A stretch of DNA of 64,000 nt from Clostridia bacterium (lineage in GTDB: Bacteria > Bacteroidota > Bacteroidia > Bacteroidales > 4484-276): NCBI GenBank assembly GCA_009928785.1, contig SABY01000001.1:23633-87632 (forward strand), written 5' to 3'. The position numbers were made by a program, and so were the translations under genes. The notes beneath the pieces were generated by a model. It saw only the letters and a program-made list of their open reading frames with translations, did not search any database and was not told where the DNA came from. How positions within the stretch are numbered: position 1 is the first letter of the stretch; every line of letters starts with the position of its first letter. Below are positions 3,629 through 51,122 of the stretch, piece by piece.

Positions 3629-3707
3629 AGTATAAAACCAAAACCCTCCGCGAATTCACACGAATTTGGCGAATTTTCATGATAAGGGAACTAGCGATAA
3701 TTCGTTT

Positions 3708-4090
3708 AATTGGCGGAAATTCGCGGACGGCTTGTTTATCCACGAATTCACCCGAATCAGTCGAATTCACACGAAAATTAAAAGACTGATTCCTTTTGAA
3801 GTTTCTATGTCAGCCTGATAGAAAGTCGCAGCAGGGGTCTGTTTTTTTATTTTTAAAATAATTAGCGGAAATTCGCGGACGGCTTGTTTATCCACGAATT
3901 CACGCGAATCAGGCGAATTCACACGAAAATTAAAAGACTGATTCCTTTTGACGTTTCTATGTCAGCCTGATAGAAAGTCGCGGCAGGGGTCTGTTTTTTT
4001 TATTTTTAAAATAATTAGCGAAAATTAGCTGAATTGGCGGAAATTCGCGGACGGCTTGTTTATCGAATTCACACGAAAATTAAAAGACAA
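3708..4090. repeat. Tandem repeat, 152-bp unit, about 2.4 copies (unit starts 3708, 3860, 4032)
   Basis: AAT(T/A)GCGGAAATTCGCGGACGG recurs at offsets of 152 and 172. The 172 offset reflects a 20-bp internal duplication. Each full unit has two GAATTCAC words, a hairpin TTTCTAT-N9-ATAGAAA (3802-3824 in copy 1) and a T-run. Confidence 0.85.
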
Positions 4091-11533: not shown

Positions 11534-12244
11534 TTACAATACCCGCTTCAGCTCCTGCAGATAGCGATTGCGAACCAGCCTGATGTTGTCCATGTCGTTT
11601 TCTTCGCGGTAAAGCCTGATGTTGTCGATCACTCCCTTTGGTGTGAAAAAGACGCCCAAAGCAGCATCGAAATTATTATACTCATCGCTGATTTTCAGGT
11701 TGTGGGTAATGCTCTCAAAAACATCCCAGCTAACCAACGACGGAATAACAAAATAAATCATCTGTGTGGTGCGGGTGTCGTGGTACATTTCGGGTTCGAT
11801 GAGTTCCAGGGTGAAATATTTGCGGATTTTTATCAAACCATAAAACGGATCCATATTGCGCGACTTCATAAAGTCGATGCCGTTTTTGCGATACAGCCGT
11901 ATCAGCTCGTCAATTTTGTCGTAGCCGCTAATGTCTTTGACGCGGATGCAGGGGGTGAGATTATTGAATACAGTAATCTGACCGGGTACGGCATCAAAAG
12001 TATCGGTAAATTCCCGCTTTACCCCCATGGTGGCACGAATCACTTTTTCGCCGGTATATTTGCGGTCGGTAACCAAAAACAGCGAAGTGGGGTTCAGTTG
12101 GTCAGGAATGGTGGTGCCGTGATAGCCTGGGTAAGGCTTCATTGTTTCGAGAACCAGTGCTTTGTCGGTATCATGTTCGACGGTGGAAAGCACCTCCTTT
12201 TTGGTGATTGTTCCCACGGTTTCCAAAATTGTCTTGTTGTTCAT
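11534..12244 (-). CDS. Hypothetical protein (236 aa), no recognisable motif
   Basis: Clean ORF with an ATG start, a non-repetitive sequence and coding-like composition. Confidence 0.55.
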   Translation of the reverse strand: MNNKTILETVGTITKKEVLSTVEHDTDKALVLETMKPYPGYHGTTIPDQLNPTSLFLVTDRKYTGEKVIRATMGVKREFTDTFDAVPGQITVFNNLTPCIRVKDISGYDKIDELIRLYRKNGIDFMKSRNMDPFYGLIKIRKYFTLELIEPEMYHDTRTTQMIYFVIPSLVSWDVFESITHNLKISDEYNNFDAALGVFFTPKGVIDNIRLYREENDMDNIRLVRNRYLQELKRVL

Positions 12245-12371: not shown

Positions 12372-12520
12372 AGACGCACGTCCCCCGCATGGGCGGGGCA
12401 GGCTGTGCGTCTCTACAATTGAAATCCCAAATCCCAAATCCCAAATCCCAAATCCCAAATCCCAAATCCCAAATCCAATTTCTTACTTCTAACTTCTATT
12501 CTCTTCCCTCTTAATTTCGT
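12372..12520. repeat. Composite intergenic element: nested GC hairpin, CAATTGAAATCC junction, (AAATCCC)x7 and an AT-rich tail
   Basis: Outer stem AGACGCAC/GTGCGTCT (12372-12379 / 12405-12412). Inner stem CCCCGC-ATGG-GCGGGG. Seven perfect heptads at 12422-12470 plus one imperfect. Tail TTCTTACTTCTAACTTCTATTCTCTTCCCTC. Confidence 0.9.
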
Positions 12521-16596: not shown

Positions 16597-17778
16597 TTGA
16601 GAGCCTACCCACGCATTACTGATCTCATAAATGATCTCACCGGAATCGACCTAAACCTGCCCGTTCAGACGTATGGCTTTTTTGTTGCACTGGCCTTCGT
16701 AGCAGGGGGGTTTATACTTTGGCTTGAGCTGGATCGGAAAGAAAAATCCGGCCAAATAAAGTTGAAAAACAGCCAGATGGTGACCAGGAAGAAGCCTGTG
16801 GCCGTCGAGTATCTCATTTCCGGAATCTTGTATTTTATCATCGGATTCAAGCTTACGGGAATCATTTTTAATTATGACGAGTTTACTGCCAATCCCCAGG
16901 GTTTTATATTTTCCGCCAAGGGATTTTATATTGGCGGTTTGGTGGTAATGGTGCCGGTATTGTGGATGATTTACCGGAAAGGGAAAAAAGCGGAAAGTGC
17001 AAACCCGGATGATGAAAAAGAATTGCGGGCGCGCGATCTTACACCGGCCATCGTTTTGGTAGCTGCTGTAGCCGGTATTGCCGGAGCCAAAATATTTGAT
17101 GTCGTCGAGCATCTCGATCAACTCTTCCGCGACCCGCTCGGCACACTATTTTCCTTTAGTGGATTAACTTTTTATGGAGGATTGCTCGTAGCGGCTTTTG
17201 CTGTAGGCATTTATGGCGAGCGCCACAATATCCGGTGGCCGGTAATGGCCGATGCGGTGGCTCCTGCTTTGATGCTTGCTTACGGCATAGGGCGCATTGG
17301 CTGCCAACTTTCCGGCGACGGCTGCTGGGGAATCGTGAATACGCTCACCAAACCAGCGTGGCTTACCTGGTTGCCCGATTTTATGTGGAGTTCCACCTTT
17401 CCGCACAACGTCATCAAAGAAGGCCTGCCACTGATGGATTGTAATGGAACCTATTGTTATGAATTGGGGCAGCCGGTTTTTCCTACTTCCCTTTACGAAA
17501 CGTTGATCGCTATTACTTTCTTTGGGGTGCTGTGGGCGCTCCGAAAACGTTTCACTGTTGCCGGAATGTTATTTTCGCTCTATCTGGTGCTAAATGGCAT
17601 AGCACGTTTTATTATCGAATTTGTGCGTGTTAATATTCGCTATCAGGTAGCTGGCTTCGAGGTGTCGCAGGCACAGATTATTGCTGTAATGCTGATTGTG
17701 GTGGGTGGCTTCGGTTTGTTTTATTTCAGATATTTGCATCCGATGGAAAGAAATCGCAAAAAATCAAATCCCAAATGA
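16597..17778 (+). CDS. lgt: Prolipoprotein diacylglyceryl transferase family protein
   Basis: Polytopic membrane protein. Lgt-like blocks [17 protein letters not shown] and [15 protein letters not shown] start with no nearby ATG. The last codons are built from the heptad-like AAATCNN repeat. Confidence 0.7.
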
Positions 17779-18000
17779 CAAAAGACAAATCACAAATAAA
17801 TCCCAAATTCCAAATTCTCAAAACCGTCGCTGGTTGAGCTTGTCGAAATCTGGTTATTAGGATTTATTTGGAACTTGTTTATTTGGAACTTGGAATTTCC
17901 CCAAAACTTGTTTATTTGGAACTTGGAATTTCCCCAAAACTTGTTTATTTGGAACTTGGAAATTCTCCAGGGCTTGTTATTTTGGAATCTGGGATTTAGC
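17764..18000. repeat. Composite repeat: period-7 tract (NNNNCAA), a central ~35 bp, then a 33-bp unit x~3.8; the arms form a long imperfect inverted repeat
   Basis: Unit CTTGTTTATTTGGAACTTGGAATTTCCCCAAAA starts at 17874, 17907, 17940 and 17973. Left AAATCCCAAATTCCAAA is nearly the reverse complement of right TTTTGGAATCTGGGATTT. Confidence 0.85.
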
Positions 18001-19280: not shown

Positions 19281-19287
19281 AAAACAA

Positions 19288-19371
19288 GAAGTTAGAGGGG
19301 AGAAGTTAGAGGGGAGAAGTTAGAGGGGAGAAGTTAGAGGGGAGAAGTTAGAGGGGAGAAGTTAGAGGGGA
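19288..19371. repeat. Perfect tandem repeat (GAAGTTAGAGGGGA)x6, 14-bp unit
   Basis: Six identical units counted from 19288 to 19371, starting 8 bp after the stop at 19280. Confidence 0.95.
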
Positions 19372-19479
19372 GAGATGAATTTAGAATTTTAGCACCAAAG
19401 GAGCGTTATTCCGATCGATCCCGGCAGGGCGACAGCAGTAAAATAGTTAAAAAAATAATCAATTTATTGTCATAAAAAA

Positions 19480-22785: not shown

Positions 22786-24090
22786 ATGAGTTCTTTTGAA
22801 ATTTGCGGAGGCAAAAGGCTCAGTGGACAGATTACACCCCAGGGTGCCAAAAACGAGGCGCTTCAGGTGATTTGTGCTGTTTTACTCACGAGCCAACCTG
22901 TTACCATTAGCAACATTCCGGAGATACGTGATGTGATAAAGCTAATCGACCTGCTGAAGTTGCTTGGCGTGGTGGTGGAAAAAACCGACGAGTCAACCTG
23001 GCGCTTTACCGCCTCAGATATTCATCTCGATATTTTGCTTACGGATAAGTTTCGTAAAAAAAGTGCGGAGTTGCGCGGCAGTATCATGATTATCGGTCCG
23101 CTGCTTGCACGCTTCGGTAAGGCATTTATTCCGCAGCCTGGTGGCGACAAAATAGGCCGTCGTCGGCTCGACACGCACTTTATTGGGTTACAAAAGCTGG
23201 GTGCCAAATTCGATTATAACTTTCAGAAGAACTACTACAGCGTGGTAGCGGAGCGTCTGGAAGGTACCTACATGCTCCTCGACGAAGCCTCCGTTACCGG
23301 CACCGCCAACGTACTCATGGCTGCCACCCTGGCGCATGGCACCACCACCATTTTCAACGCCGCCTGCGAGCCTTATGTGGTGCAGCTCTGTAAAATGCTC
23401 AACAGCATGGGTGCCCGAATCGAAGGTATTGGCAGCAATCTGCTGATTGTACACGGTGTAGAAGTTTTATCCGGCTGCAGCCATAAGCTCTTGCCCGACA
23501 TGATCGAGGTGGGTAGTTTTATCGGGCTGGCAGCACTCACCCAATCCAACATAAAAATTACCGGCGTCAACCCGGCCGATCTGGGCATCATCCCCGACGT
23601 TTTTGGAAGGCTCGGCATCCGTATGCAACTCAATGCCGACAGCATCGAAATTCCCGAACAGGAGAGTTACGAGATCGAAACTTTTATGGATGGCTCCATC
23701 ATGACCATCTCTGATGCTCCGTGGCCCGGCTTTACTCCCGACCTGATTAGTATTGCGCTGGTGGTGGCCATACAAGCCAAAGGCAGCGTGTTGATCCATC
23801 AGAAAATGTTTGAAAGCCGTCTGTTTTTCGTTGACAAACTCATCGACATGGGCGCTCGTATTATTTTGTGCGACCCGCACCGCGCCACCGTTATTGGCCT
23901 CGCCCGGCAATACAAGCTGCGCGCTATCCGTATGAGTTCGCCCGACATACGTGCTGGTGTAGCCTTGCTGCTCAGTGCGCTATCGGCTGAAGGCAAAAGC
24001 ATCATCGACAACATTGAGCAGATCGACCGCGGCTACCAAAACATCGATGGACGCCTGCGTGCAATTGGCGCGGAAATTGAAAGAATTTAG
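22786..24090 (+). CDS. murA: UDP-N-acetylglucosamine 1-carboxyvinyltransferase
   Basis: Full-length MurA pattern (GAKNEALQVICA...). The active-site loop PGGDKIGRRRLDTH has Asp (codon GAC at 23146-23148) where E. coli has Cys115. Confidence 0.95.
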   Translation: MSSFEICGGKRLSGQITPQGAKNEALQVICAVLLTSQPVTISNIPEIRDVIKLIDLLKLLGVVVEKTDESTWRFTASDIHLDILLTDKFRKKSAELRGSIMIIGPLLARFGKAFIPQPGGDKIGRRRLDTHFIGLQKLGAKFDYNFQKNYYSVVAERLEGTYMLLDEASVTGTANVLMAATLAHGTTTIFNAACEPYVVQLCKMLNSMGARIEGIGSNLLIVHGVEVLSGCSHKLLPDMIEVGSFIGLAALTQSNIKITGVNPADLGIIPDVFGRLGIRMQLNADSIEIPEQESYEIETFMDGSIMTISDAPWPGFTPDLISIALVVAIQAKGSVLIHQKMFESRLFFVDKLIDMGARIILCDPHRATVIGLARQYKLRAIRMSSPDIRAGVALLLSALSAEGKSIIDNIEQIDRGYQNIDGRLRAIGAEIERI

Positions 24091-24231
24091 AAGTTAGATG
24101 TCAGAAGTTAGATGTTAGAAATTAGATTTAGGATTTTTAATTAGGAAGTAGAGACGCACAGCCTGCCCCGCCCATGCGGGGGACGTGCGTAAATAATTAC
24201 GAATGAATATTGAATTTTGAATTTTGAATTG
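24090..24231. repeat. Composite element: degenerate 14-mers (GAAGTTAGATGTNA), the same GC hairpin as at 12372 (inverted), and (TGAATTT)x~4
   Basis: 24148-24190 is a perfect reverse-complement match to 12374-12416 (43 nt). 14-mers at 24090-24131; heptads at 24204-24231. Confidence 0.9.
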
Positions 24232-27122: not shown

Positions 27123-27275
27123 AGACCAAACCCTTCGGAGGACGTGTGTCTGGAAATGCAATTGAAATCCGAATACCGAATACCGAATACCGAATACTGA
27201 ATACCGAATACCGAATACCGAATAACGAATACCGAATAACGGATAACGAATAACGAATAACGGATAACGAATTTT
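27123..27275. repeat. Composite element: short hairpin region, CAATTGAAATCC junction and 15 heptads (GAATACC grading to GAATAAC/GGATAAC)
   Basis: AGACCAAACCCTTCGGAGGACGTGTGTCT at 27123-27151. The junction at 27159-27170 is identical to 12416-12427. Heptads counted from 27171 to 27275. Confidence 0.9.
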
Positions 27276-39643: not shown

Positions 39644-41920
39644 ATGCTTTTCGATCTCGATCTAATCCAAAACGTTTACAATAAATTTCCTGCAAGAATC
39701 CAAAAGGCGCGTCAGCTTTTAAAGCGTCCGCTTACGCTCACCGAAAAAATCCTCTATGCCCATTTGTGGGATGAGGTGGGAAAAGAATATAACCGTGGCG
39801 CCGACTATGTGGATTTTGCCCCCGACCGCGTGGCCATGCAAGATGCTACCGCCCAGATGGCGCTGCTTCAATTTATGCAGGCCGGGCGCGACAAAGTGGC
39901 GGTGCCAAGCACGGTGCATTGCGATCACCTGATACAGGCGCGCGTGGGAGCCAAAGAAGATTTGAAGGTTGCTAAAGATAACAACCGGGAGGTTTTTGAT
40001 TTTCTTTCGTCGATATCCAATAAATATGGTATTGGTTTCTGGAAGCCGGGTGCCGGCATCATCCATCAGGTGGTGCTCGAAAACTATGCTTTTCCCGGCG
40101 GGATGATGATAGGAACCGATTCGCACACCGTGAATGCCGGCGGGCTTGGCATGATAGCCATTGGTGTAGGCGGCGCCGATGCTGTGGATGTAATGGCCGG
40201 CATGCCCTGGGAGCTGAAGATGCCGCGCATCATCGGTGTAAAATTAACGGGTAAACTCAGCGGATGGACATCCTCCAAAGACGTCATTCTGAAAGTTGCT
40301 GGTATCCTTACGGTAAAAGGCGGAACAGGTGCTATTGTTGAATATTTTGGCCCTGGCGCCGAGCATCTGAGCTGCACAGGCAAGGGCACGATATGTAATA
40401 TGGGCGCCGAGATTGGAGCAACCACTTCTTTATTCGGCTACGACCGGCGTATGTCGGATTACCTGCGTGCTACCGGACGTGCTCTGGTGGCCGACGCTGC
40501 CGATAAAATTGCCGGACATCTAATCGGTGATGAAGAAGTTTATAACGATCCCGGAGAATATTTCGATCAGGTTATCGAAATTGATCTTTCCCAACTGGAG
40601 CCGCACATCAACGGGCCTTTTACCCCGGATTTGGCCACGCCGGTATCGGAATTTGCGCAGGCAGCCCGCGACAACAACTGGCCACTGACGCTGGAGGTAG
40701 GCTTAATTGGTTCCTGTACCAATTCATCTTACGAAGACATTACCCGTGCTGCTTCAGTGGCGCAGCAGGCGCTCGACAACGATCTGGAAGTGAAATCGGA
40801 ATATACCGTTACGCCCGGTTCCGAGCAGGTGCGGTTTACAGTAGAACGCGACGGCTACCTCGACATCTTCGAAAAAATTGGCGGCGTGGTGCTGGCCAAT
40901 GCATGTGGCCCCTGCATCGGACAATGGGCACGCCACAATGCCGACAAGAAAGAGAAAAACTCTATCATGACGTCGTTCAATCGCAACTTTGCCAAACGCA
41001 ACGACGGCAACCCCAACACGCACGGTTTTGTGGCTTCGCCCGAAATTGTAACGGCTTTTGCCATTGCCGGCACCCTGGAGTTTAATCCGCTCACCGACAG
41101 CCTTATTAATAAAAAAGGAGAAAAAATAAAACTGAAAGAACCACAGGGAATCGAACTGCCTATTAAAGGTTTTGCTGTGGAAGACAATGGCTACCAGGAA
41201 CCTGCTCGCGATGGCAGCAACATCAGCGTTGAGGTGGCTCCCGACTCCGACCGTTTGCAGTTGCTTGCGCCTTTTGCACCCTGGGAAGGTCACGACATTA
41301 AAGGTCTAAGATTATTAATAAAAGCCAAAGGCAAATGTACCACCGACCACATTTCGATGGCCGGCCCCTGGCTGCGCTACCGTGGTCACCTGGATAATAT
41401 TTCCAACAACCTGCTTATTGGCGCCGAAAATGCCTTTACCGGAAAAACCAATCTTATCAAAAACCAGCTAAACGGTGCATATGATGCAGTGCCGGCGGTG
41501 GCAAGAGCTTACAAAGCGCAAGGCATTGGAACCATTGTGGTGGGCGACGAAAATTATGGCGAAGGCTCCTCACGCGAACATGCCGCTATGGAGCCGCGTC
41601 ATCTGGGCGTTAGAGCTGTGGTGGTGCGTAGTTTTGCACGCATACACGAAACCAACCTAAAAAAGCAAGGGATGCTCGCGCTTACCTTTGCCGACAAAAC
41701 CGATTACGGTAAAATTATGGAAGACGATACTTTCGACATCACAGGTCTCGAAACCTTTGAGCAAGGCCGTCCGCTGCAACTCATCGTTCACCACTTCGAC
41801 GGCACCACCAACAAAATGGAGATGCTGCACACCTATAGTCCGGTACAAATAGAATGGTTTAAAGCCGGCTCGGCGCTCAACCTTATCAAAAAGCAGAATG
41901 TGTTGACGGGGAGGAAGTAG
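39644..41920 (+). CDS. acnA: Aconitate hydratase (about 750-aa type)
   Basis: Aconitase family blocks including the Fe-S ligand contexts GSCTNSS and [10 protein letters not shown], plus the swivel domain. The stop TAG (41918-41920) lies inside the first GGAAGTA heptads. Confidence 0.9.
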
Positions 41921-42223
41921 GAAGTAGGAAGTAGGAAGTAGGAAGTAGGTAGCAGGAAGTAGGTAGTGGTTAGAACAAAGAAATTAGAATTTACCGTTGA
42001 GATGCCCGATCGTGTTCGTTTAATATTGTTGATGAATGAAACCTCTGCAGGCTTCCTGTCAATAATTCCCGGATTCATCAGGGATAGATGGAAGAAGAGC
42101 CAACTGCGAACTGCGAACTGTGTACTGTGGACTGTGGACTGTGAGCTGCCAACTGCGAACTGAGAACTGTGAGCTGCCAACTGAGAACTGCGAACTGTGG
42201 ACTGCGAGCTGCCAACTGCAACT
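41913..42223. repeat. Composite element: (GGAAGTA)x~8, a ~130-bp core, then 17+ heptads of the form GNNNACT
   Basis: Left array 41913-41968. Right array 42099-42223 (GCCAACT, GCGAACT, GTGGACT, GTGAGCT...), with a higher-order ~28-bp pattern. Confidence 0.9.
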
Positions 42224-42434
42224 GCCTTTTGTTGATTTTTTAACCCAAAACCTGGGTAAAGGTATCCACAAGCTATTGGGTTGATAAATTTTTGTATTTT
42301 AAACTAAATATCAGAAAACCAATGATATAGTTTTGAAATTCCTTCGATTTCCTTTTTTATCCCTTTTGGCACGATACTCTCAAGTTCCCTTTTATTGTTA
42401 TAAATAAATTGTTAAACCTAAAAAGTAATACGCC

Positions 42435-44946: not shown

Positions 44947-45083
44947 AAACAAACAAACACCGAACACCAAACAACAAACACCAAGCAACAAACTTGAGCG
45001 TAGCTGCCTGCCCCGACCCATCGGGGAAATCCCGAGAGCTTTGCGATTCGGGAAACAAACAACGAACAACAAACAACGAACAG
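44947..45083. repeat. Composite element: (CAAACAC/CAAACAA)x~7, two GC hairpins, then (AAACAAC/AACGAAC)x~4
   Basis: Hairpins CCCCGA-CCCA-TCGGGG (45011-45026) and CCCGA-N12-TCGGG (45031-45052). Heptad tracts at 44947-44993 and 45053-45083. Confidence 0.85.
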
Positions 45084-45087
45084 TTTT

Positions 45088-45558
45088 ATGACCGAAAATT
45101 TCAAACTCGACAGCCTCGACCGGCGCATTCTGGCGCTACTCACCGCCGACGCCCGGATGCCGTATCTCCAGGTAGCGCGCCATTGCAAAGTGTCGGGAGC
45201 AGCCATCCATCAGCGGGTGCAAAAAATGACCGAAGCCGGCGTCATCACCGGCGCGCAGGTAACCATTTCGCGCAGCGGCTTTGGCTATCTCACCTGCGCT
45301 TTCATCGGCTTACAAGTCAACCTTACTGCTACAAGCACACATGAGGAGGTTTTTCAGAAAATAAAACAAATCCCTGAAATCGTCGAGTGCCACCATATCA
45401 CCGGCAAATATTCGCTGTTGGTAAAAATTCTGGCTCGTAACAATGAGCAGCTCAAAAACATCATCGTCGAGCAAATCCAGTCCATCCCGGAGATTGTAGC
45501 CACCGAAACCTTCATCTCGCTCGAAGAGGGTTTTGTGCGCCCGCTGCCTGTGGAATAA
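45088..45558 (+). CDS. Lrp/AsnC family transcriptional regulator
   Basis: N-terminal HTH (LDRRILALLTADARMPYLQVARHCKVSGAAIHQRV) and a C-terminal RAM domain; 156 aa. Confidence 0.9.
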   Translation: MTENFKLDSLDRRILALLTADARMPYLQVARHCKVSGAAIHQRVQKMTEAGVITGAQVTISRSGFGYLTCAFIGLQVNLTATSTHEEVFQKIKQIPEIVECHHITGKYSLLVKILARNNEQLKNIIVEQIQSIPEIVATETFISLEEGFVRPLPVE

Positions 45559-45616: not shown

Positions 45617-47284
45617 ATGACTTTTCGTATTGCCATGTTAATCGTTGCTTTGGTAATTTTCGATTGCCAATTGCAGGCACAAGACACCACCAAAATCGAC
45701 TCGTTGCGTTACATAGCTTTGATGGCGCCGGGCGATTCGGCACGCGTGCACGAATATGTGGAGCTATCCAAGATGCTTATGATCTCTGATGTGCAACAGG
45801 CATTGCAAGTGGCGCAGCAGGCAATGGATATTGCAGAAAAAGCCGCTGACCAAAAACTTCTGGCACATGCCTGCCTCAATCTGGGCAATGTTTACTTCAC
45901 CAACGGCTTGCTCGAGCTTTCCACACAATATTTTTTGCGATACATCGAAATAAATAGCCGGCTTGGCAACGAAAAAGGTGTGGCCTACGGACGCATTAAT
46001 CTGGGAGCTGTGTATCTGCAATTGGAGCAATACCAGCAATCGAGAACGTATTTTGAAAAAGCGCTCATTTTTTTCGAACACCTGGCCGATTCTATGCAGT
46101 CTGCTTCGCCCCACAACGAAATGCTGATTATCTATAACAATCTGGGCATTGCTTGTCAAAACCTTCAGGAGCCTGAATTAGCCAAAAATTATTATGAAAA
46201 AGGAATTCTGATGGCTCGACAGGCTGGGAGCGATCCGGAGGTTCTGGGCATCCTGCTCAACAACCTGGGTGCACTTTTTATCGCCCAGGGTCATTCCGAT
46301 AAAAGCTACGAATATCTCATCGAATCTTTCCGTTTGCGCCAATCAGCCAACGATCTGGTAGGCATGGGACAATCGCATCGCACCCTGGCCGAATATTATA
46401 TGACCATCAACGACGAGCGTACTGCCATCGATCATCTTAATGAAGGTTACCGGTTGGCTGTTCAGGTTGGAAATATGAGTTTACTAACTGAGGTGGCGAT
46501 AAAACTTTTCGAGGTTTACCAGCGGCAGAGTAATGCCGACTCGGCGCTGAAATACTATATGGCTTACTCCGATGTAAACGAAAAGCTCAATCGGGCAGAA
46601 GCAGCCAATGCACTCACCCAGTATGAAATTACCAGCAAATACGAAGAAAGTCGCCGCCTGATGAGATTGAAACAGCAACGCAAAGAGCAGCGCTACCTTT
46701 TTATCGGGTTTATCCTGCTCTTGGTTTTGGCCATCATCAGCCTGCTCTATTTTCTTTCGCACAGCCGCAACAAACGCCTGCGACTCGAAGCCGAGAACAT
46801 CCAGTTGAACGCACAGAAAATGGAGCTTGAAAAAAATAATCTTGAAAAAGAGCTTGAAATCAAGAAAAAAGAGCTGACCACCAATGTGATGTATCAGATA
46901 CAGAAAAACGAACTTATTTACGAAATTGTACAGAAGCTGCAAAAGCAGATGGCAACGAGCCAGCGACCCGATCAGCGATGGCTGTTACAAACCATCCGCG
47001 ATCTGGAGCGTACGCACGACACTTCCGTGTGGCAGGAATTTGAGGTACGTTTCGAACAGGTGCACAATGATTTCTACCAAAAGCTCAACGAAATCGACGC
47101 CAGCCTCACACCCAACGAGCGGCGCCTGTGTGCCTTCCTAAAGCTAAATATGAGTTCCAAAGAAATTTCGCTCATCACCGGTCAGTCGCCCCGCACCATC
47201 GACGTGGCCAGAACCCGCCTGCGCAAAAAACTCAACCTCACCAACTCCGATACAGGACTTGTAGAATATCTCGCCGCGCTCTGA
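45617..47284 (+). CDS. Transmembrane one-component regulator: periplasmic TPR repeats, a TM helix, a coiled coil and a LuxR-type HTH
   Basis: Signal peptide MTFRIAMLIVALVIFDCQLQAQ, TPR-like repeats, TM YLFIGFILLLVLAIISLLYFL and a C-terminal LuxR HTH (ERRLCAFLKLNMSSKEISLITGQSPRTIDVARTRLRKKL). ATG verified at 45617. Confidence 0.8.
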   Translation: MTFRIAMLIVALVIFDCQLQAQDTTKIDSLRYIALMAPGDSARVHEYVELSKMLMISDVQQALQVAQQAMDIAEKAADQKLLAHACLNLGNVYFTNGLLELSTQYFLRYIEINSRLGNEKGVAYGRINLGAVYLQLEQYQQSRTYFEKALIFFEHLADSMQSASPHNEMLIIYNNLGIACQNLQEPELAKNYYEKGILMARQAGSDPEVLGILLNNLGALFIAQGHSDKSYEYLIESFRLRQSANDLVGMGQSHRTLAEYYMTINDERTAIDHLNEGYRLAVQVGNMSLLTEVAIKLFEVYQRQSNADSALKYYMAYSDVNEKLNRAEAANALTQYEITSKYEESRRLMRLKQQRKEQRYLFIGFILLLVLAIISLLYFLSHSRNKRLRLEAENIQLNAQKMELEKNNLEKELEIKKKELTTNVMYQIQKNELIYEIVQKLQKQMATSQRPDQRWLLQTIRDLERTHDTSVWQEFEVRFEQVHNDFYQKLNEIDASLTPNERRLCAFLKLNMSSKEISLITGQSPRTIDVARTRLRKKLNLTNSDTGLVEYLAAL

Positions 47285-47303
47285 TGAAGTCGGCAAACAA
47301 GAT

Positions 47304-47689
47304 TAACCTTTCTATCTCCTCCTTCATCGGACCGTAGAAAGTTGCTACCCCCCCCACAGACTTTCGAGCGTCCGAAGGACCTCGAAACGTCAACAAACGA
47401 AACTAACCTTTCTATCTCCTCCTTCATCGGACCGTAGAAAGTTGCTACCCCCCCCACAGACTTTCGAGCGTCCGAAGAACCTCGAAACGTCAACGAACGA
47501 ACCTAACCTTTTCTATCTCCTCCTTCATCGGACGATAGAAAGTTGCTACCCCCCCACAGACTTTCGAGCGTCCGAAGGGACCTCGAAACGTCAAACAAAC
47601 AACAAACAACAAACAACAAACAACAAACAACGAACAACAAACAACGAACAACAAACAACAAACAACGAACAACGAACAACAAACAACGA
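47304..47689. repeat. Three tandem copies of an exactly 100-bp unit (starts 47304, 47404, 47504) running into ~14 heptads (AACAAAC/AACGAAC)
   Basis: Copies 1 and 2 differ at 3 positions. Each unit has hairpin A (CTTTCTA...TAGAAAG, 47308-47341), a C7-8 run and hairpin B (TTTCGAG-C-GTCC-GAA-GGAC-CTCGAAA, 47362-47387). The heptad tract spans about 47593-47689. Confidence 0.9.
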
Positions 47690-47846
47690 CCTGTGCTTCC
47701 AAACCCTAAGGTACTCGCAGGCAGTAATGTAAGCGTATTTGTATTGTTGATGTATGGCTGGGTTTTGGGCATTGTAGCTACAAAGTGGCGATGGATTTTT
47801 TGGTGGTAAACTATGCGCGTAGTAATCTTGCAGCTCAAAATTATTC

Positions 47847-47999
47847 ATGATGGCAAACAACAAATCCAACAAGGAAACGGAGAAGGAAATCGAAGACGAA
47901 CTGAAGGCGCTTTTGGATCGGAAACAATCTGAAAGAAAAGCACTCCTGAAATTGCTGCGTCATTTCGAAAAGGATATGGATGATAAAAAGACAAAATAG
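47847..47999 (+). CDS. Possible small ORF (50 aa, charged helical); not in the ORF track
   Basis: Hand translation gives MMANNKSNKETEKEIEDELKALLDRKQSERKALLKLLRHFEKDMDDKKTK. No RBS or homology evidence. Confidence 0.25.
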   Translation: MMANNKSNKETEKEIEDELKALLDRKQSERKALLKLLRHFEKDMDDKKTK

Positions 48000-48068
48000 A
48001 AACCATTACACCTTTACTAATTTAACTAATCAAAAATTCATAATTCATAATTCAAAACAATTAAAACA

Positions 48069-51000
48069 ATGCAAACACGAACTACAATTTTCTCACAATT
48101 CAGGCTGGTCAGCCTTATGCTGTTGCTCCTGCCTATGCTGATGATTACTACGGCAAATGCACAAGGTATGCGTCTTTTCCCTGTCGAAGAAGACTTTGAA
48201 GGTGCAACCTTTCCACCCGCATCCTGGCAGGTTTTCGATATAGATGGCGACGGCGAAACTTGGATAGGCTCTGCCGATTTTAACCATAGCCCTGACGGTG
48301 CCAAAAGTGCCTATCATAACTTTGCAAATGGCGCACAAGATGGTTATTTGGTAACGCCCGCTATGGAATTTCCAGCCTCGGGTACTATCGTTTTTACTTT
48401 CTGGAATTACACAGTCGATCCAGACTATTATGGCAATAACAGCGTGCTAATAAGCACTGGTAGCGGCAACCCGGCCGACGGCGATTTTGTCGAGCTTTGG
48501 ACACCCGATCAGGTTGCCGCCGAATGGGAACAGGTATTGATCAATCTGGCTCCTTATGCCGGTCAAACGGCCTATCTGGCTTTCCGTTATCAGGGCGACT
48601 ATGCCCACGCCTGGGCTGTAGATGATGTGTATGTTGGCGACGAGTTTGATACTGCGCCACATATCGTGGTAGCTCCGACCCAGGTTAATGCCACTGGTCC
48701 CATCAATTCCATTCTTACAAAAACACTCAACATCAGCAATGGTGGCATCGACAACCTGATTTATTCTATCGATTTTTCTTATAATGGCGGCACCGAAGGT
48801 TGGCTTACCATTTACCCGCTCACCGGCGACCTGGGTACAGGTGGTGCTCTGGGACACATCCTTACCTTCGATCCCGAAGACCTTTCACTGGGTGATTACA
48901 GCGCAACAATCACCATTAGCTCCAACGATACCGAGTTTCCTGAAGTAATCGTTCCGATAAACTACACGGTTTTAGAAGCTGCAAACTACGAAGTTATCAC
49001 ACTATTAAATGATTATACTTTCCCAACTGATATCAGCGAAAATGGCGAATTTATCGTTATTACCTCTTTTGATGGCAGTGGTTTATTGTGGTCTAAAGAG
49101 TTTGGTCTGAAAGCAATAACCGGCGAGGATCAAACGGTGCAGGCTGTTGCCGAAGATGGTACCGTAGGTGGTACCAACAACAATCCTGAATACAACACGC
49201 AAATGAGCGGCTTTTGGCATTACCAGACTGAACAATGGTTGTTTCTGCCGCTCAATCCCGACGCTGGCCAACCAACGGGTTCCGACTATAATTCCTGCTG
49301 GGGAATGTCGGCTGATGGTTCTATTATGGTAGGGATGCAATATTTCCCGGGAGGATTGTACAAAGCATTTAAATGGACGGCCACGGATGGTTATGAGGAT
49401 ATTGGTGCGCTGGCGCCCGGCGGAAACCGACCCAATGGCATCAGCAACGATGGAAGCGTGGTATATGGCTGGGCTGATTTGCCTGAAGCTTCGCGCTCGC
49501 CGGTGATCTGGGTTGATGACCAACTCATTGAAATTGCTCCTGAAGAATACGGTGAAGCTTTCGCGGCTTCGTCAACAGGAGAATATGTGGTAGGTAATGC
49601 CGGCGAATCCGGATTTATCTGGAGCCAGCAAACAGGCGCAGTATTTTTCGAAAATACGCTTAATGACGGAATGATCTCCCCTGTGGCAGTAATGGATGAT
49701 GGTACTGTGTTGGGTTTTACCGCCGAAGGCTGGCCACCTTTTCCTGATATGCGTCGTGCGTTTGCAAGGTTGCCTGATGGCGAAATGGTTACCTTCAACG
49801 ACTATGCATTAAGCCGCGGAATGGCCGAAGCTTCTGATTGGTTATTCTATAGCATCAATGGCGTTACTCCCGACGGGAATAAATTCATCGGTGCAGGCAT
49901 CAATCCTGAGGGCGATTATGTAACTTTCCTCATCGACTTTGGCGCCGAGCTGCCCAACATCAGCGTTCTTCCCGAAAATATAATGGAAGCATTATTACCC
50001 GGAGCATCTTCTACCCAACTCATGGAAATCGAAAATACCGGCAACGCTCCGCTCGAATACGAAACCTATATCAATTATCTGATGGCCGGGCAGAGCAACC
50101 AACCCACCGCTGTTCCTGTTGGCAAAAGCCAGCGCAGCCGCGATCTTACTCTGCAATCTGTTCCCATCAAGGGTGATGCTGCTATGCACGACAATGCCCG
50201 CGACGACAACTTTCTGCTGCATTACGATGGCGAAAATGCCGAAGCTGTAGGACTTGTCGCAGGTGGAAGCATGTTTGCTGCGGCACGCTTTCCATCGGAT
50301 ATGGTTTATGCTTTTGCCGGCGCCACGCTGCAATCAGTGGATACATACGTTAATGATATGCCCAACGAAGCTACACTCATCATTTGGGGGCCCGGCACCA
50401 CTACCACTCCTGGCCAGGTGCTGCATGTTCAGCCTTTTGATGCAGCCCCCCTCGAGTGGAATACAATTACTCTGGATACTCCGTTGGCGCTGGAAGGTAC
50501 CGATATCTGGATCGGAATCAATTATATCCATGATGCCGGAATGTGGGTTGCAGGTCTCGACGGCGGCCCTGCCGATCCTAATGGCGACTGGGTGTCGATG
50601 GATGGCGAAACATGGGAGCATCTCTCTGATGCCGGTCTGAACGCCAACCTAAACATCCGCGGCCTGGTGCAGCTTTCTCCCGGCGAATGGCTCAGCCTCG
50701 ATCCCGCTGCTGGCACCGTTCCCGCCGAAGATATGCAGGAGGTAGCAGTTAATTTTACCACCACCACCCTGATGCAGGGAATGTATGCTGCCAATATCAT
50801 TATCGAAAGCAACGACAAAGACACGCCTTACACCGTGGTTCCGGTTACACTCGACGTAATGGTAGGTTTGGATGAAAACCCAATGCAGGCCATCCGCGTT
50901 TATCCCGTTCCCGCCACCACCCGGCTCAACATCGACCTGGTGGAAGGTATAGAAAGTGTGCGTTTGTTCAACAGCTTCGGCCAATTGGTTCGTGAAGTAA

Positions 51001-51122
51001 AAACTATTAACAGCCTAAATCAGCAACTCAACCTCGAAGGTTTAGGCACAGGCGCTTACATGCTTCAGTTTGTTGGCAATGCCGGCCTGACGCACCAGCG
51101 AGCCATCATCATTAGCAAGTAA
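48069..51122 (+). CDS. Large secreted T9SS cargo protein (N-terminal choice-of-anchor-J/MAM-like domain, HAF-like repeats, C-terminal T9SS sorting domain)
   Basis: Signal peptide. N-terminal EEDFEGATFPPASWQVFDIDGDGETW...LAFRYQGDYAHAWAVDDVYVG. Repeats such as GISNDGSVVYGWA and KAFKWTATDGYEDIG. C-terminal IRVYPVPATTRLNIDL...GAYMLQF (Por/T9SS CTD pattern). Confidence 0.85.
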   Translation: MQTRTTIFSQFRLVSLMLLLLPMLMITTANAQGMRLFPVEEDFEGATFPPASWQVFDIDGDGETWIGSADFNHSPDGAKSAYHNFANGAQDGYLVTPAMEFPASGTIVFTFWNYTVDPDYYGNNSVLISTGSGNPADGDFVELWTPDQVAAEWEQVLINLAPYAGQTAYLAFRYQGDYAHAWAVDDVYVGDEFDTAPHIVVAPTQVNATGPINSILTKTLNISNGGIDNLIYSIDFSYNGGTEGWLTIYPLTGDLGTGGALGHILTFDPEDLSLGDYSATITISSNDTEFPEVIVPINYTVLEAANYEVITLLNDYTFPTDISENGEFIVITSFDGSGLLWSKEFGLKAITGEDQTVQAVAEDGTVGGTNNNPEYNTQMSGFWHYQTEQWLFLPLNPDAGQPTGSDYNSCWGMSADGSIMVGMQYFPGGLYKAFKWTATDGYEDIGALAPGGNRPNGISNDGSVVYGWADLPEASRSPVIWVDDQLIEIAPEEYGEAFAASSTGEYVVGNAGESGFIWSQQTGAVFFENTLNDGMISPVAVMDDGTVLGFTAEGWPPFPDMRRAFARLPDGEMVTFNDYALSRGMAEASDWLFYSINGVTPDGNKFIGAGINPEGDYVTFLIDFGAELPNISVLPENIMEALLPGASSTQLMEIENTGNAPLEYETYINYLMAGQSNQPTAVPVGKSQRSRDLTLQSVPIKGDAAMHDNARDDNFLLHYDGENAEAVGLVAGGSMFAAARFPSDMVYAFAGATLQSVDTYVNDMPNEATLIIWGPGTTTTPGQVLHVQPFDAAPLEWNTITLDTPLALEGTDIWIGINYIHDAGMWVAGLDGGPADPNGDWVSMDGETWEHLSDAGLNANLNIRGLVQLSPGEWLSLDPAAGTVPAEDMQEVAVNFTTTTLMQGMYAANIIIESNDKDTPYTVVPVTLDVMVGLDENPMQAIRVYPVPATTRLNIDLVEGIESVRLFNSFGQLVREVKTINSLNQQLNLEGLGTGAYMLQFVGNAGLTHQRAIIISK

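Follow-up and report, generated by a model that had tools for sequence, protein, structure and literature searches.

The 64,000-nt window that we analysed (contig SABY01000001.1, from a Bacteroidales genome deposited as Clostridia bacterium) carries, between the gene for a regulator with TPR and LuxR-type domains and a gene for a secreted cargo protein, an intergenic tandem array (47304-47689) in which a 100-nt unit occurs three times and gives way to a run of heptanucleotides. This array probably consists of six copies, arranged as three inverted pairs, of a single REP/BIME-like extragenic palindrome that is dispersed in the genomes of Lentimicrobiaceae. (REPs are repetitive extragenic palindromes, BIMEs are bacterial interspersed mosaic elements, and a REPIN is a REP doublet that forms a single long hairpin.) With this palindrome, a known kind of repeat gains a new family; the system itself is not of a new kind.

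Tandem Repeats Finder (TRF) reports a repeat of period 100 at 47304-47600 (3.0 copies, 94% matches, score 525) and a repeat of period 7 at 47594-47687 (13.4 copies, 93% matches). Units 1 and 2 mismatch at exactly 3 of 100 positions (47378 G/A, 47395 A/G, and 47402 A/C). Unit 3 differs from unit 1 by one 2-nt substitution (CG to GA) and three 1-nt indels, not counting its 3' linker, which diverges into the heptad array. An earlier description, made from the letters of the window without database searches (the sequence-only reading), had proposed just such a 100-bp unit, with 3 differences between the first two copies and substitutions and 1-nt indels in the third, and both TRF and direct comparison agree with it. 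Inspection of the arms also bears out the two hairpins and the C runs that it placed in each unit. In units 1 and 2, the arms of hairpin A are CTTTCTA/TAGAAAG (7 bp), and in unit 3 they are TTTCTATC/GATAGAAA (8 bp); hairpin B has the arms TTTCGAG/CTCGAAA and the inner pair GTCC/GGAC; and the C runs are C8, C8, and C7. The same reading judged the array not to be CRISPR-like. Indeed, we rejected a CRISPR array because the units are contiguous, 94-97% identical throughout, and have no unique spacers. We also rejected an array of integron attC sites (there are no cassettes), a G-quadruplex on the minus strand (which has a single G-run per 100 nt), and a Bacteroidetes promoter inside the unit (there is no TAnnTTTG motif).

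Each unit can be read as an inverted and partly decayed A, a pyrimidine-rich spacer of 15-18 nt that includes the C run, a B, and a 12-nt linker that resembles AACAAAC. The last 12 nt of each unit (AACAAACGAAAC, AACGAACGAACC) amount to 1.7 degenerate heptads. The repeat register can equally start at 47289, as the 15 nt before unit 1 resemble the linker between units: this sequence (47289-47303, plus strand; GTCGGCAAACAAGAT) is a degenerate AACAAAC type, lines up in register with those linkers, which read GTCAACAAACGAAAC and (G)TCAACGAACGAACC, and begins 5 nt past the stop codon of the regulator gene. It is also present in L001. (Loci from other genomes and assemblies are numbered L001 and so on; L001 and L011 are Logan assemblies of strains that are 98-99% identical in the flanking proteins.) The left junction of the array is confirmed in L001, a 99% strain whose contig ends inside unit 1, and the right junction in L011, whose contig starts within the heptads. 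Because both contigs break within the array, they confirm the junctions and not the number of units.

The sequence-only reading took the 100-nt unit to be a single element with two different hairpins and a functional C run. Instead, the unit is a dimer of inverted copies of one dispersed palindrome. Matches of a B model on the opposite strand exposed the inversion: B reads ACTTTC-GAG-C-GTCC..GGAC-CTC-GAAACGTC (ending in GAAA-C-GTC), and A, on the other strand, reads ACTTTC-TAT-C-GTCC..GGAC-ATA-GAAACGTT (ending in GAAA-C-GTT). The aligned stems show that A and B are one palindrome in two opposite orientations, whose stems differ by compensatory changes. A third subfamily, A', has CAT/ATG at these positions and is found in one metagenome-assembled genome (MAG), CAZBDF01 (L023).

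A covariance model of the family, R1, recognises all six copies. The B-type copies are on the plus strand at 47354-47395 (core G47359-C47391; 66.3 bits, E = 8e-17), at 47454-47495 (61.2 bits), where a G-to-A change at 47478 breaks one inner pair, and at 47554-47596 (60.7 bits), with a 4-nt loop. The A-type copies are on the minus strand at 47301-47348 (38.9 bits, E = 7.9e-9), 47401-47448 (36.2 bits, E = 5e-8), and 47502-47549 (37.0 bits), and copies 1 and 3 are also supported by the family alignment. All three of these A copies are degenerate, with GGAC changed to GGAG and ACGTT changed to AGGTT (on the other strand, AACG to AACC and TATGTCC to TATCTCC). These two G-to-C changes are in all three units of the window and not in L001, which retains the consensus G at both positions. 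As single-stranded DNA (ssDNA), A from the window folds at -3.8 kcal/mol (z = -1.5), as compared to -7.5 kcal/mol for the consensus A and -10.2 kcal/mol (z = -3.6) for B. The motif CCGTAG is distributed differently: units 1 and 2 and L001 have it and unit 3 does not. This mosaic sharing of mutations points to concerted evolution within the array, which would have acted among the copies after the triplication.

Between A and B lies the pyrimidine-rich spacer (47344-47358, plus strand, in unit 1), with its C8 run at 47348-47355. In an alignment of the dimer from five genomes, the homologous spacer is CCTGCCCTCAG, CTTGCCCTCCG, or CCTGCCCACAG. The C8 run stands in place of CCTGCCC in the spacer of other genomes (...CCTGCCC(A/T)C(A/C)G) and is a local variant of the spacer.

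We tested the structure across 48 distinct copies. In the 14-pair structure, 97.2% of the stem cells are paired, and both of the bulged C residues are conserved and are mirrored in A. Double-sided changes occur at 3 of the 14 pairs (columns 6-46, GC/AU; columns 13-37, GC/UA/CG; and columns 15-35, GC/UA). The covariation score is 0.161, versus 0.059 ± 0.007 in shuffles, and 0 of 500 shuffles reach the observed value. Sliding the 3' partners lowers the pairing to 20-55%. The compensatory changes derive from two or three subfamily splits and hence represent few independent events, yet they match exactly what is known of REP subfamilies. The structure of the hairpin is thus conserved across the family. 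The sequence-only reading had taken the preserved or lengthened hairpin A of unit 3 to suggest that structure is under selection. This is not supported at this locus, as the longer stem of unit 3 (GACGATAGAAAG) is the family consensus, and the A copies of the array are decayed. The sequence-only reading had also said that a match to a known element, together with a lack of covariation among other copies, would count against it. The unit is indeed of a known, REP/BIME-like kind, but other copies do show covariation.

In several genomes, the palindrome and its dimer are found in many intergenic places that are unrelated to each other. The palindrome of hairpin B spans about 36 nt and is near-invariant (GAC-TTTCGAG-C-GTCC-GMA-GGAC-CTCGAAA-C-GTC). 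A degenerate pattern for hairpin B matched 21 loci in 4 MAGs of Lentimicrobiaceae or Bacteroidales among species-representative genomes: 10 in CAZTCX01, 9 in JAAYIU01, and 1 each in CAZBDF01 and CAZGAO01. Because these MAGs are fragmented, the two larger counts are lower bounds (at least 10 and at least 9 loci). Together, nhmmer and R1 identified 59 copies of the family in 24 of the 32 loci that we examined. All of the copies are intergenic, and both orientations occur. Around the B copies, about 5 nt to the left (consensus YYTCMG) and CGTCAA(A) to the right are shared, and further out the flanks are unrelated. The neighbouring genes are functionally unrelated: they encode SmpB, dehydroquinase, NusG, XdhC, SecA, a TonB-dependent receptor, a GH2 enzyme, M14 and S9 peptidases, MBOAT and MFS proteins, and cargo proteins of the type IX secretion system (T9SS). 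Many copies lie within about 1.5 kb of the ends of contigs, as expected for multi-copy repeats. Viral contigs had 0 hits for the B and A patterns, and plasmids had no blastn match.

Within the 64-kb window, there are no other copies of B or of canonical A. There are two A-like members of the family, both on the minus strand and both outside the training set of R1, at 3794-3832 (30.3 bits, E = 2.6e-6) and 3946-3984 (33.1 bits, E = 4e-7). They lie in a tandem repeat with a period of 152 nt (3707-4026). This repeat extends over 3707-4051 (2.1 copies, 95%), lies between convergent genes, and contains 10-nt sub-repeats (AATTCGCGGA, CACGAATTCA), with a T-run after each A-like member.

Could the array instead be a purely local minisatellite, with incidental hairpins and no relatives elsewhere? 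The lack of another B or canonical A in the window would fit, and the first scans with exact words found nothing related: a 23-mer gave 0 hits in the species-representative genomes, and a 20-mer gave 3 hits in the JGI metagenomes, all of them chance matches in coding sequence and two of them in homologous open reading frames (ORFs). This explanation is refuted by the 59 members of the family in other genomes and the two further copies in the window, and is almost certainly wrong.

We also noticed that in CAZTCX01 (L020, 2946-3299) and in JAAYIU01 (L033, 413-451), a B palindrome lies between smpB and a gene for a putative sigma-54 activator, whose identity is confirmed by Pfam only in L033. The two sites appear to be the same locus, although the spacer between these genes measures about 130 nt in one MAG and about 570 nt in the other, where further repeats fill it. 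An old insertion may thus have been kept at one locus while its surroundings turned over.

Segments that contain the palindrome have repeatedly been amplified in tandem, with arbitrary unit lengths. The clearest comparison is with L012, from a species whose proteins at this locus are 87% identical. A profile built from the three units of the window hits L012 seven times, about 4 kb downstream of the orthologous cargo gene, in an array of 7 tandem copies with a period of 137 nt. The L012 units share only the part with hairpin B (GACTTTCGAGCGTCCGCAGGACCTCGAAACGTCA) with our units; the remainder is a different family of palindromes (GCGCCATAGGCGC), and each unit also carries GCGCAGG heptads in variable number. 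In L024 and L037, half units (the 3' arm of A, the spacer, and B) are repeated with a period of 67 nt. Across different genomes, the tandem repeats that bear the palindrome have periods of 46, 67, 100, 112, 137, 176, 179, and 421 nt, besides the 152 nt in the window. Because these periods are unrelated, the 100-nt period of our array is incidental. The triplication itself seems to be a recent duplication of one dimer with its linker, since units 1 and 2 are near-identical, linkers included, and since there is a linker-like sequence to the left of unit 1 and a heptad tract to the right. It probably arose by unequal recombination or replication slippage between the AACAAAC-like tracts on either side of one dimer.

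The composite of A, spacer, and B aligns over five genomes, with sharp boundaries at TTAACG and CGTCAA and unrelated flanks beyond them. By the nomenclature of Di Nocera et al., the composite counts as a head-to-head heterodimer with its tags outward. Its minimum-energy fold is two separate hairpins. The long inverted ends and the sharp boundaries raise the possibility that the composite (about 88 nt) is one of the miniature inverted-repeat transposable elements (MITEs) and is moved by a DDE transposase, its inverted terminal repeats being about 35 nt long (TTRACGTTTC...), and that the array is three nested or adjacent insertions. Furthermore, a MITE that bears a minisatellite, BrickBuilt, is known in Porphyromonas gingivalis, which is also in the Bacteroidales (PMC4596501). 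Like our array, BrickBuilt is a species-restricted intergenic repeat with inverted ends and tandem repetition and no unique spacers. It is a looser analogue, in that a 23-nt brick is repeated between its leader and tail subunits, whereas here the whole dimer is repeated and the microsatellite lies outside. We consider a MITE improbable. There are no direct target-site duplications, and the TT...AA flanks extend the inverted symmetry. Solo B copies with sharp boundaries of their own are the majority, and half units with a period of 67 nt occur in L024 and L037. That units 1 and 2 share linkers and have just 3 differences indicates duplication of a segment rather than separate insertions. Finally, we saw no transposase gene near any copy of the family.

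The palindrome shares the main hallmarks of the REPs and BIMEs of Proteobacteria, such as the Y and Z REPs and the BIME-2 clusters of E. coli. Like them, it is a bulged, imperfect palindrome (36-40 nt, where REPs have 20-40 nt) that forms a stem-loop, here with 14 pairs, and it has many dispersed extragenic copies, of which our counts are lower bounds (PMC3733652). It has subfamilies with complementary changes in the stem, and two types that alternate in orientation with characteristic spacers. Its dimers are reiterated in tandem along with flanking DNA, and the clusters are mosaic, including the second palindrome family in L012 (PMC3733652).

Several points weigh against this assignment. Classical REPs have a GT[AG]G foot 5' of the hairpin, but here it is absent: YYTCMG precedes B on its 5' side, the sequence in this position varies for A, and the GTAG in the spacer of the window is due to chance only. 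The basal stem is AT-rich, unlike that of classical REPs, and the host is in the Bacteroidales. The number of copies per complete genome rests on fragmented MAGs. Solo B copies are more frequent than dimers, so that, unlike in REPINs, it is not evident that the dimer is what replicates. A function at the level of RNA is conceivable, as the plus strand folds significantly better than shuffled sequences and B is co-oriented with the upstream gene at about 11 of 16 loci. Lastly, we found no gene for a RAYT (REP-associated tyrosine transposase) or other Y1 transposase in the 368 kb that we examined, either by two regular-expression scans for the HUH...Y motifs or by tblastn with four RAYT proteins from Bacteroidota. 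These four queries were drawn from PF01797 proteins that are annotated as REP-associated tyrosine transposases. A RAYT-like query from Bacteroidota retrieved thousands of PF01797 proteins, at up to 75% identity. A weak tblastn match that recurred in L023 is to an unrelated ORF of 420 amino acids that looks, by eye, like an alpha/beta hydrolase, and we treated it as noise. The flanks of two RAYT genes (from Pontibacter and from a Bacteroidota MAG) contain no hairpins that resemble the family, which says nothing about Lentimicrobiaceae.

Among more specific classes, REPINs resemble the dimer in having two inverted palindromes and a short spacer, a length of about 90 nt, and dispersal as a unit in several genomes. 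The dimer does not qualify as a REPIN, as its partners belong to different subfamilies (GAG/CTC versus TAT/ATA), it forms two hairpins, and singlets are more numerous than doublets. The super-family of REPs with a CGTC tag (Di Nocera et al. 2013) is also similar: its members have CGTC at one end and mostly form head-to-head dimers with the tags outward, they are reported in Bacteroidetes, and no dedicated transposase is known for them. However, in the four CGTC-tagged families the stem spans 8-9 bp and starts with A-T pairs, the loop has 4-5 nt, the tag is unpaired, and the tail is CCA (Di Nocera et al. 2013). Our palindrome has a stem of 7 + 4 bp with two bulges (and 3 outer pairs), a loop of 3-4 nt (up to 13), a partly paired tag, and an A-rich tail (AAA), and so falls outside this super-family. 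In Bacteroidetes, genes for TnpA_REP proteins of a subclass of their own (2.6) are reported to be flanked by "atypical" hairpins that lack GTAG and have copies elsewhere in the genome (Quentin et al. 2018; PMC6006769). The phylum and the lack of GTAG match, but none of the listed hairpins has TTTCGAG/CTCGAAA or ATAGAAA, and we found no Y1 transposase beside our copies. More broadly, the sequence of the palindrome is unrelated to any REP in Table S1 of PMC6006769.

How might such a palindrome spread? It could move as ssDNA hairpins that are processed by an HUH/Y1 (RAYT-type) enzyme or by another activity. Provided that the family is REP-like, the HUH/Y1-type enzyme is the mechanism that we prefer, with nearly an even chance of being correct. 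A palindrome-associated element of the IS200/IS605 type was rejected, as the hairpins at its ends would be direct and here they are inverted. Any effect on the host may be generic, and we speculate that hairpins in the 3' untranslated region (UTR) of the regulator could slow exonucleases; the palindrome would then have no dedicated function.

The evidence from RNA folding deserves a closer look, as the array could instead encode a structured RNA: a stabiliser in the 3' UTR, a terminator/anti-terminator switch, or a small RNA that acts on the transcript of the regulator or on the downstream operon. As compared to shuffled sequences, the plus strands of units 1, 2, and 3 fold with z = -4.4, -2.5, and -5.5. 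Units 1 and 3 fold better than every shuffle, unit 2 is matched by 3 of 200 shuffles, and folding of the minus strand is not significant. There is also a third pairing, as 16 nt in the 3' arm of A can pair with the 5' arm of B (81-88% complementarity), and the three mutually exclusive helices could form a conformational switch. The array starts 5 nt past a stop codon, and REPs are known to act at the RNA level (PMC3733652). Nevertheless, a structured RNA seems unlikely to us. The alternative pairing is a trivial outcome of A and B being inverted copies of one sequence. The excess of B copies that are co-oriented with the nearest upstream gene (about 11 to 5) is mild and not significant, and the copies occur in both orientations beside unrelated genes. 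There is no U-tract after either hairpin. The compensatory changes are all Watson-Crick, and the single-sided transitions (G-U versus A-C mismatches) split 4 to 2 between the strands, which is uninformative and gives no strand signal. The A copies of the window have decayed, and the orthologous spacer of relatives lacks the element entirely. Rfam, which the sequence-only reading had proposed as a check, has no family that matches the array at the gathering score, and the hits at E up to 10 (all with E above 3) are noise. We separately considered an intrinsic terminator: B is followed by CGTCAA(A) and preceded by pyrimidines, and a scan found no terminator-like site in the array.

Turning to the locus, Pfam supports the identification of both flanking genes that was made from the letters alone. 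The upstream gene (45617-47284, plus strand) encodes a TPR + LuxR/GerE-type regulator (TPR_12, 5e-20; GerE, 5e-4) with homologues of 555-566 amino acids, and has an alternative start 33 nt upstream. The downstream gene (48069-51122, plus strand) encodes a T9SS cargo protein of the choice-of-anchor J type with a Por_Secre_tail domain, as its homologues also indicate. Between the array and the cargo gene is a conserved ORF of 50 amino acids (47847-47999, plus strand; MANNKSNKETEKEIEDELKALL...), which is called and conserved in L011, L013, and L015. The order of the genes is a pyridoxal-phosphate-dependent enzyme of cysteine/methionine metabolism, Lrp/AsnC, the regulator, the spacer, the small ORF, the cargo gene, an esterase, and a TOBE-domain protein. 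Relatives with 88-87%, 82%, or 74% identity in the regulator or cargo protein retain this order. The closest homologues of the regulator and the cargo protein are from MAGs of uncultured Bacteroidales or Lentimicrobiaceae.

In contrast to the genes, the spacer that bears the array is hypervariable among relatives, and the array is lineage-specific. From the regulator to the small ORF, the spacer is 563 bp in the window and contains the array. In the 87% species, the orthologous spacer is about 715 bp and has quite different heptad arrays and palindromes. It is about 895 bp, with a duplicated block of about 240 bp, in the species with 74% identity of the cargo protein, and only 60 bp, next to a shortened cargo gene, in the relative whose regulator is 82% identical. 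Conversely, the array that adjoins the TOBE-domain gene in L012 is missing from the window. In about 90 kb from the relatives with 82% (regulator) and 74% (cargo) identity, nhmmer and R1 found no copies of the family. In relatives, conservation of the spacer is confined to its final ~115 nt, next to the small ORF, which implies that the array is not a conserved component of the locus.

In the relative with the 82% identical regulator (L003-L005, 11729-13963), the cargo gene encodes 744 rather than 1017 amino acids and starts 60 bp past the regulator, and the small ORF and the conserved block upstream of it are absent. This suggests a deletion, which would have extended across the hypervariable spacer into the 5' portion of the cargo gene.

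The conserved block (47735-47846, plus strand; TTGTAGCTACAAAGTGGCGATGGATTTTTTGGTGGTAAAC...TAATCTTGCAG) was identified by aligning the relatives. It is nearly invariant in those whose cargo protein is 74-98% identical, while the remaining spacer cannot be aligned, and so it marks the right limit of the hypervariable spacer. The block (TTTG-N20-TAATCTTG) is probably a promoter or operator, and there is no covariation across the relatives to support an RNA structure within it. The position of the palindromes, directly downstream of a regulator with a LuxR-type helix-turn-helix and upstream of the next operon, might suggest that they are iterons or operators, that is, an array of binding sites for this regulator or for another DNA-binding protein. 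This is very unlikely: orthologous regulators in relatives have no such palindromes next to them, in other genomes the palindrome has SmpB, SecA, NusG, and further unrelated genes as its neighbours, and the conserved candidate for a promoter or operator is this other block.

The array ends in a heptanucleotide microsatellite (47594-47689, plus strand) with 9 AACAAAC, 4 AACGAAC, and 1 partial AACGACC, or 13 full heptads and 1 partial heptad, in agreement with the ~14 counted originally. As a set of intergenic, head-to-tail 7-nt units, it is a heptanucleotide simple sequence repeat. The sequence-only reading saw the microsatellite growing out of the element. This is possible, yet the consensus of the element ends at CGTCAA, and there are AACAAAC arrays 2.3 kb upstream without the element. 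The heptads are probably an ordinary slippage-prone microsatellite, like those that fill the spacers of this genome.

Indeed, the window has about a dozen intergenic arrays (at least 10 besides the AACAAAC/AACGAAC heptads), with periods of 7 nt or its multiples (14, 21, and 28 nt). Arrays of the heptad type are at 12422-12476, 17757-17987, 19287-19373, 24082-24230, 27169-27272, 41912-41967, 42102-42225, 44947-45082, and 48035-48054. Their units are mutually unrelated (AAATCCC, CCGAATA, AGGAAGT, AACTGCG, AGAAGTTAGAGGGG, and others), and the arrays of relatives use yet other units, such as CGCCCTG and, in L012, 30 copies of the 8-nt TCACCACA. Intergenic arrays of heptamers are known as long simple sequence repeats (Mrazek 2007), for example TAACTGA in Beggiatoaceae, Cyanobacteria, and Bacteroidetes. 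By comparison, the window's units vary widely in sequence, and its arrays lie unusually close together (about a dozen in 64 kb), a density that looks unusual for a Bacteroidales genome. The array at 44947-45082, upstream of the Lrp/AsnC gene (45088-45558), has a GC-rich hairpin core of about 60 nt (CTTGAGCGTAGCTGCCTGCCCCGACCCATCGGGGAAATCCCGAGAGC...) between tracts of AACAAAC/CAAACAC heptads. A hairpin element that is embedded in the same family of heptads is also the arrangement at 47304-47689.

Heptads follow the hairpin both here (AACAAAC) and in L012 (GCGCAGG, in variable number, after each of the seven copies). One explanation would be that the hairpin is the recognition site of an ssDNA enzyme, either a Bacteroidetes-specific subclass of RAYT or something new, and that nicking at the hairpin's 3' boundary (CGTCA) seeds arbitrary heptads. 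If so, the abundance of heptads across the genome would be linked mechanistically to the palindrome family rather than to simple polymerase slippage. We regard this as a long shot. Because heptad arrays are so common in these spacers, it is more likely that the adjacency is a coincidence.

Other repeats share these genomes with the palindrome. A second dispersed family of palindromes, GCGCCRTAGGCGC, usually has two copies about 50 nt apart and is found in L012 (8920-9950), L013 (4400-4480), L014, L030, L035, and L038. It is joined with hairpin B in the 137-nt mosaic units (87% species, MAG JAAYIU01), has a single inverted copy in the spacer that is orthologous to the array, and does not occur in the window. 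A third element, also dispersed, is GGCTTGGCCTAAGCTGT(A/C)TCTATTT(T/C)(T/C)GCAGGCT..GCCTGCTTTTTT; with its two hairpins and its T-run, it looks like a terminator. It is found in L003-L007 (about 11690-11740), in L015/L016 (8970-9030, 9210-9270, and 16776), and in L020 (3120-3180). Neither this element nor its companion motif, AGCCTGTAAAAA...GACGAGG, is present in the window. Separately, the minus strand of the window at 63462-63530 matches the DUF805 RNA motif (RF03081), at 68.5 bits versus the gathering score of 51.1.

These results document a REP/BIME-like family in the Lentimicrobiaceae, which are Bacteroidales of anaerobic digesters that are known almost entirely from MAGs. The family shows clear covariation between its subfamilies and is organised in head-to-head heterodimers, and its missing GTAG foot fits the poorly characterised "atypical" class of REPs in Bacteroidetes. 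The palindromes, their arrays, and the dense heptads break short-read assemblies, and many copies are at the ends of contigs. They also render the spacers between genes hypervariable among close relatives, which could be of use for typing strains but can mislead searches for regulatory RNAs as well.

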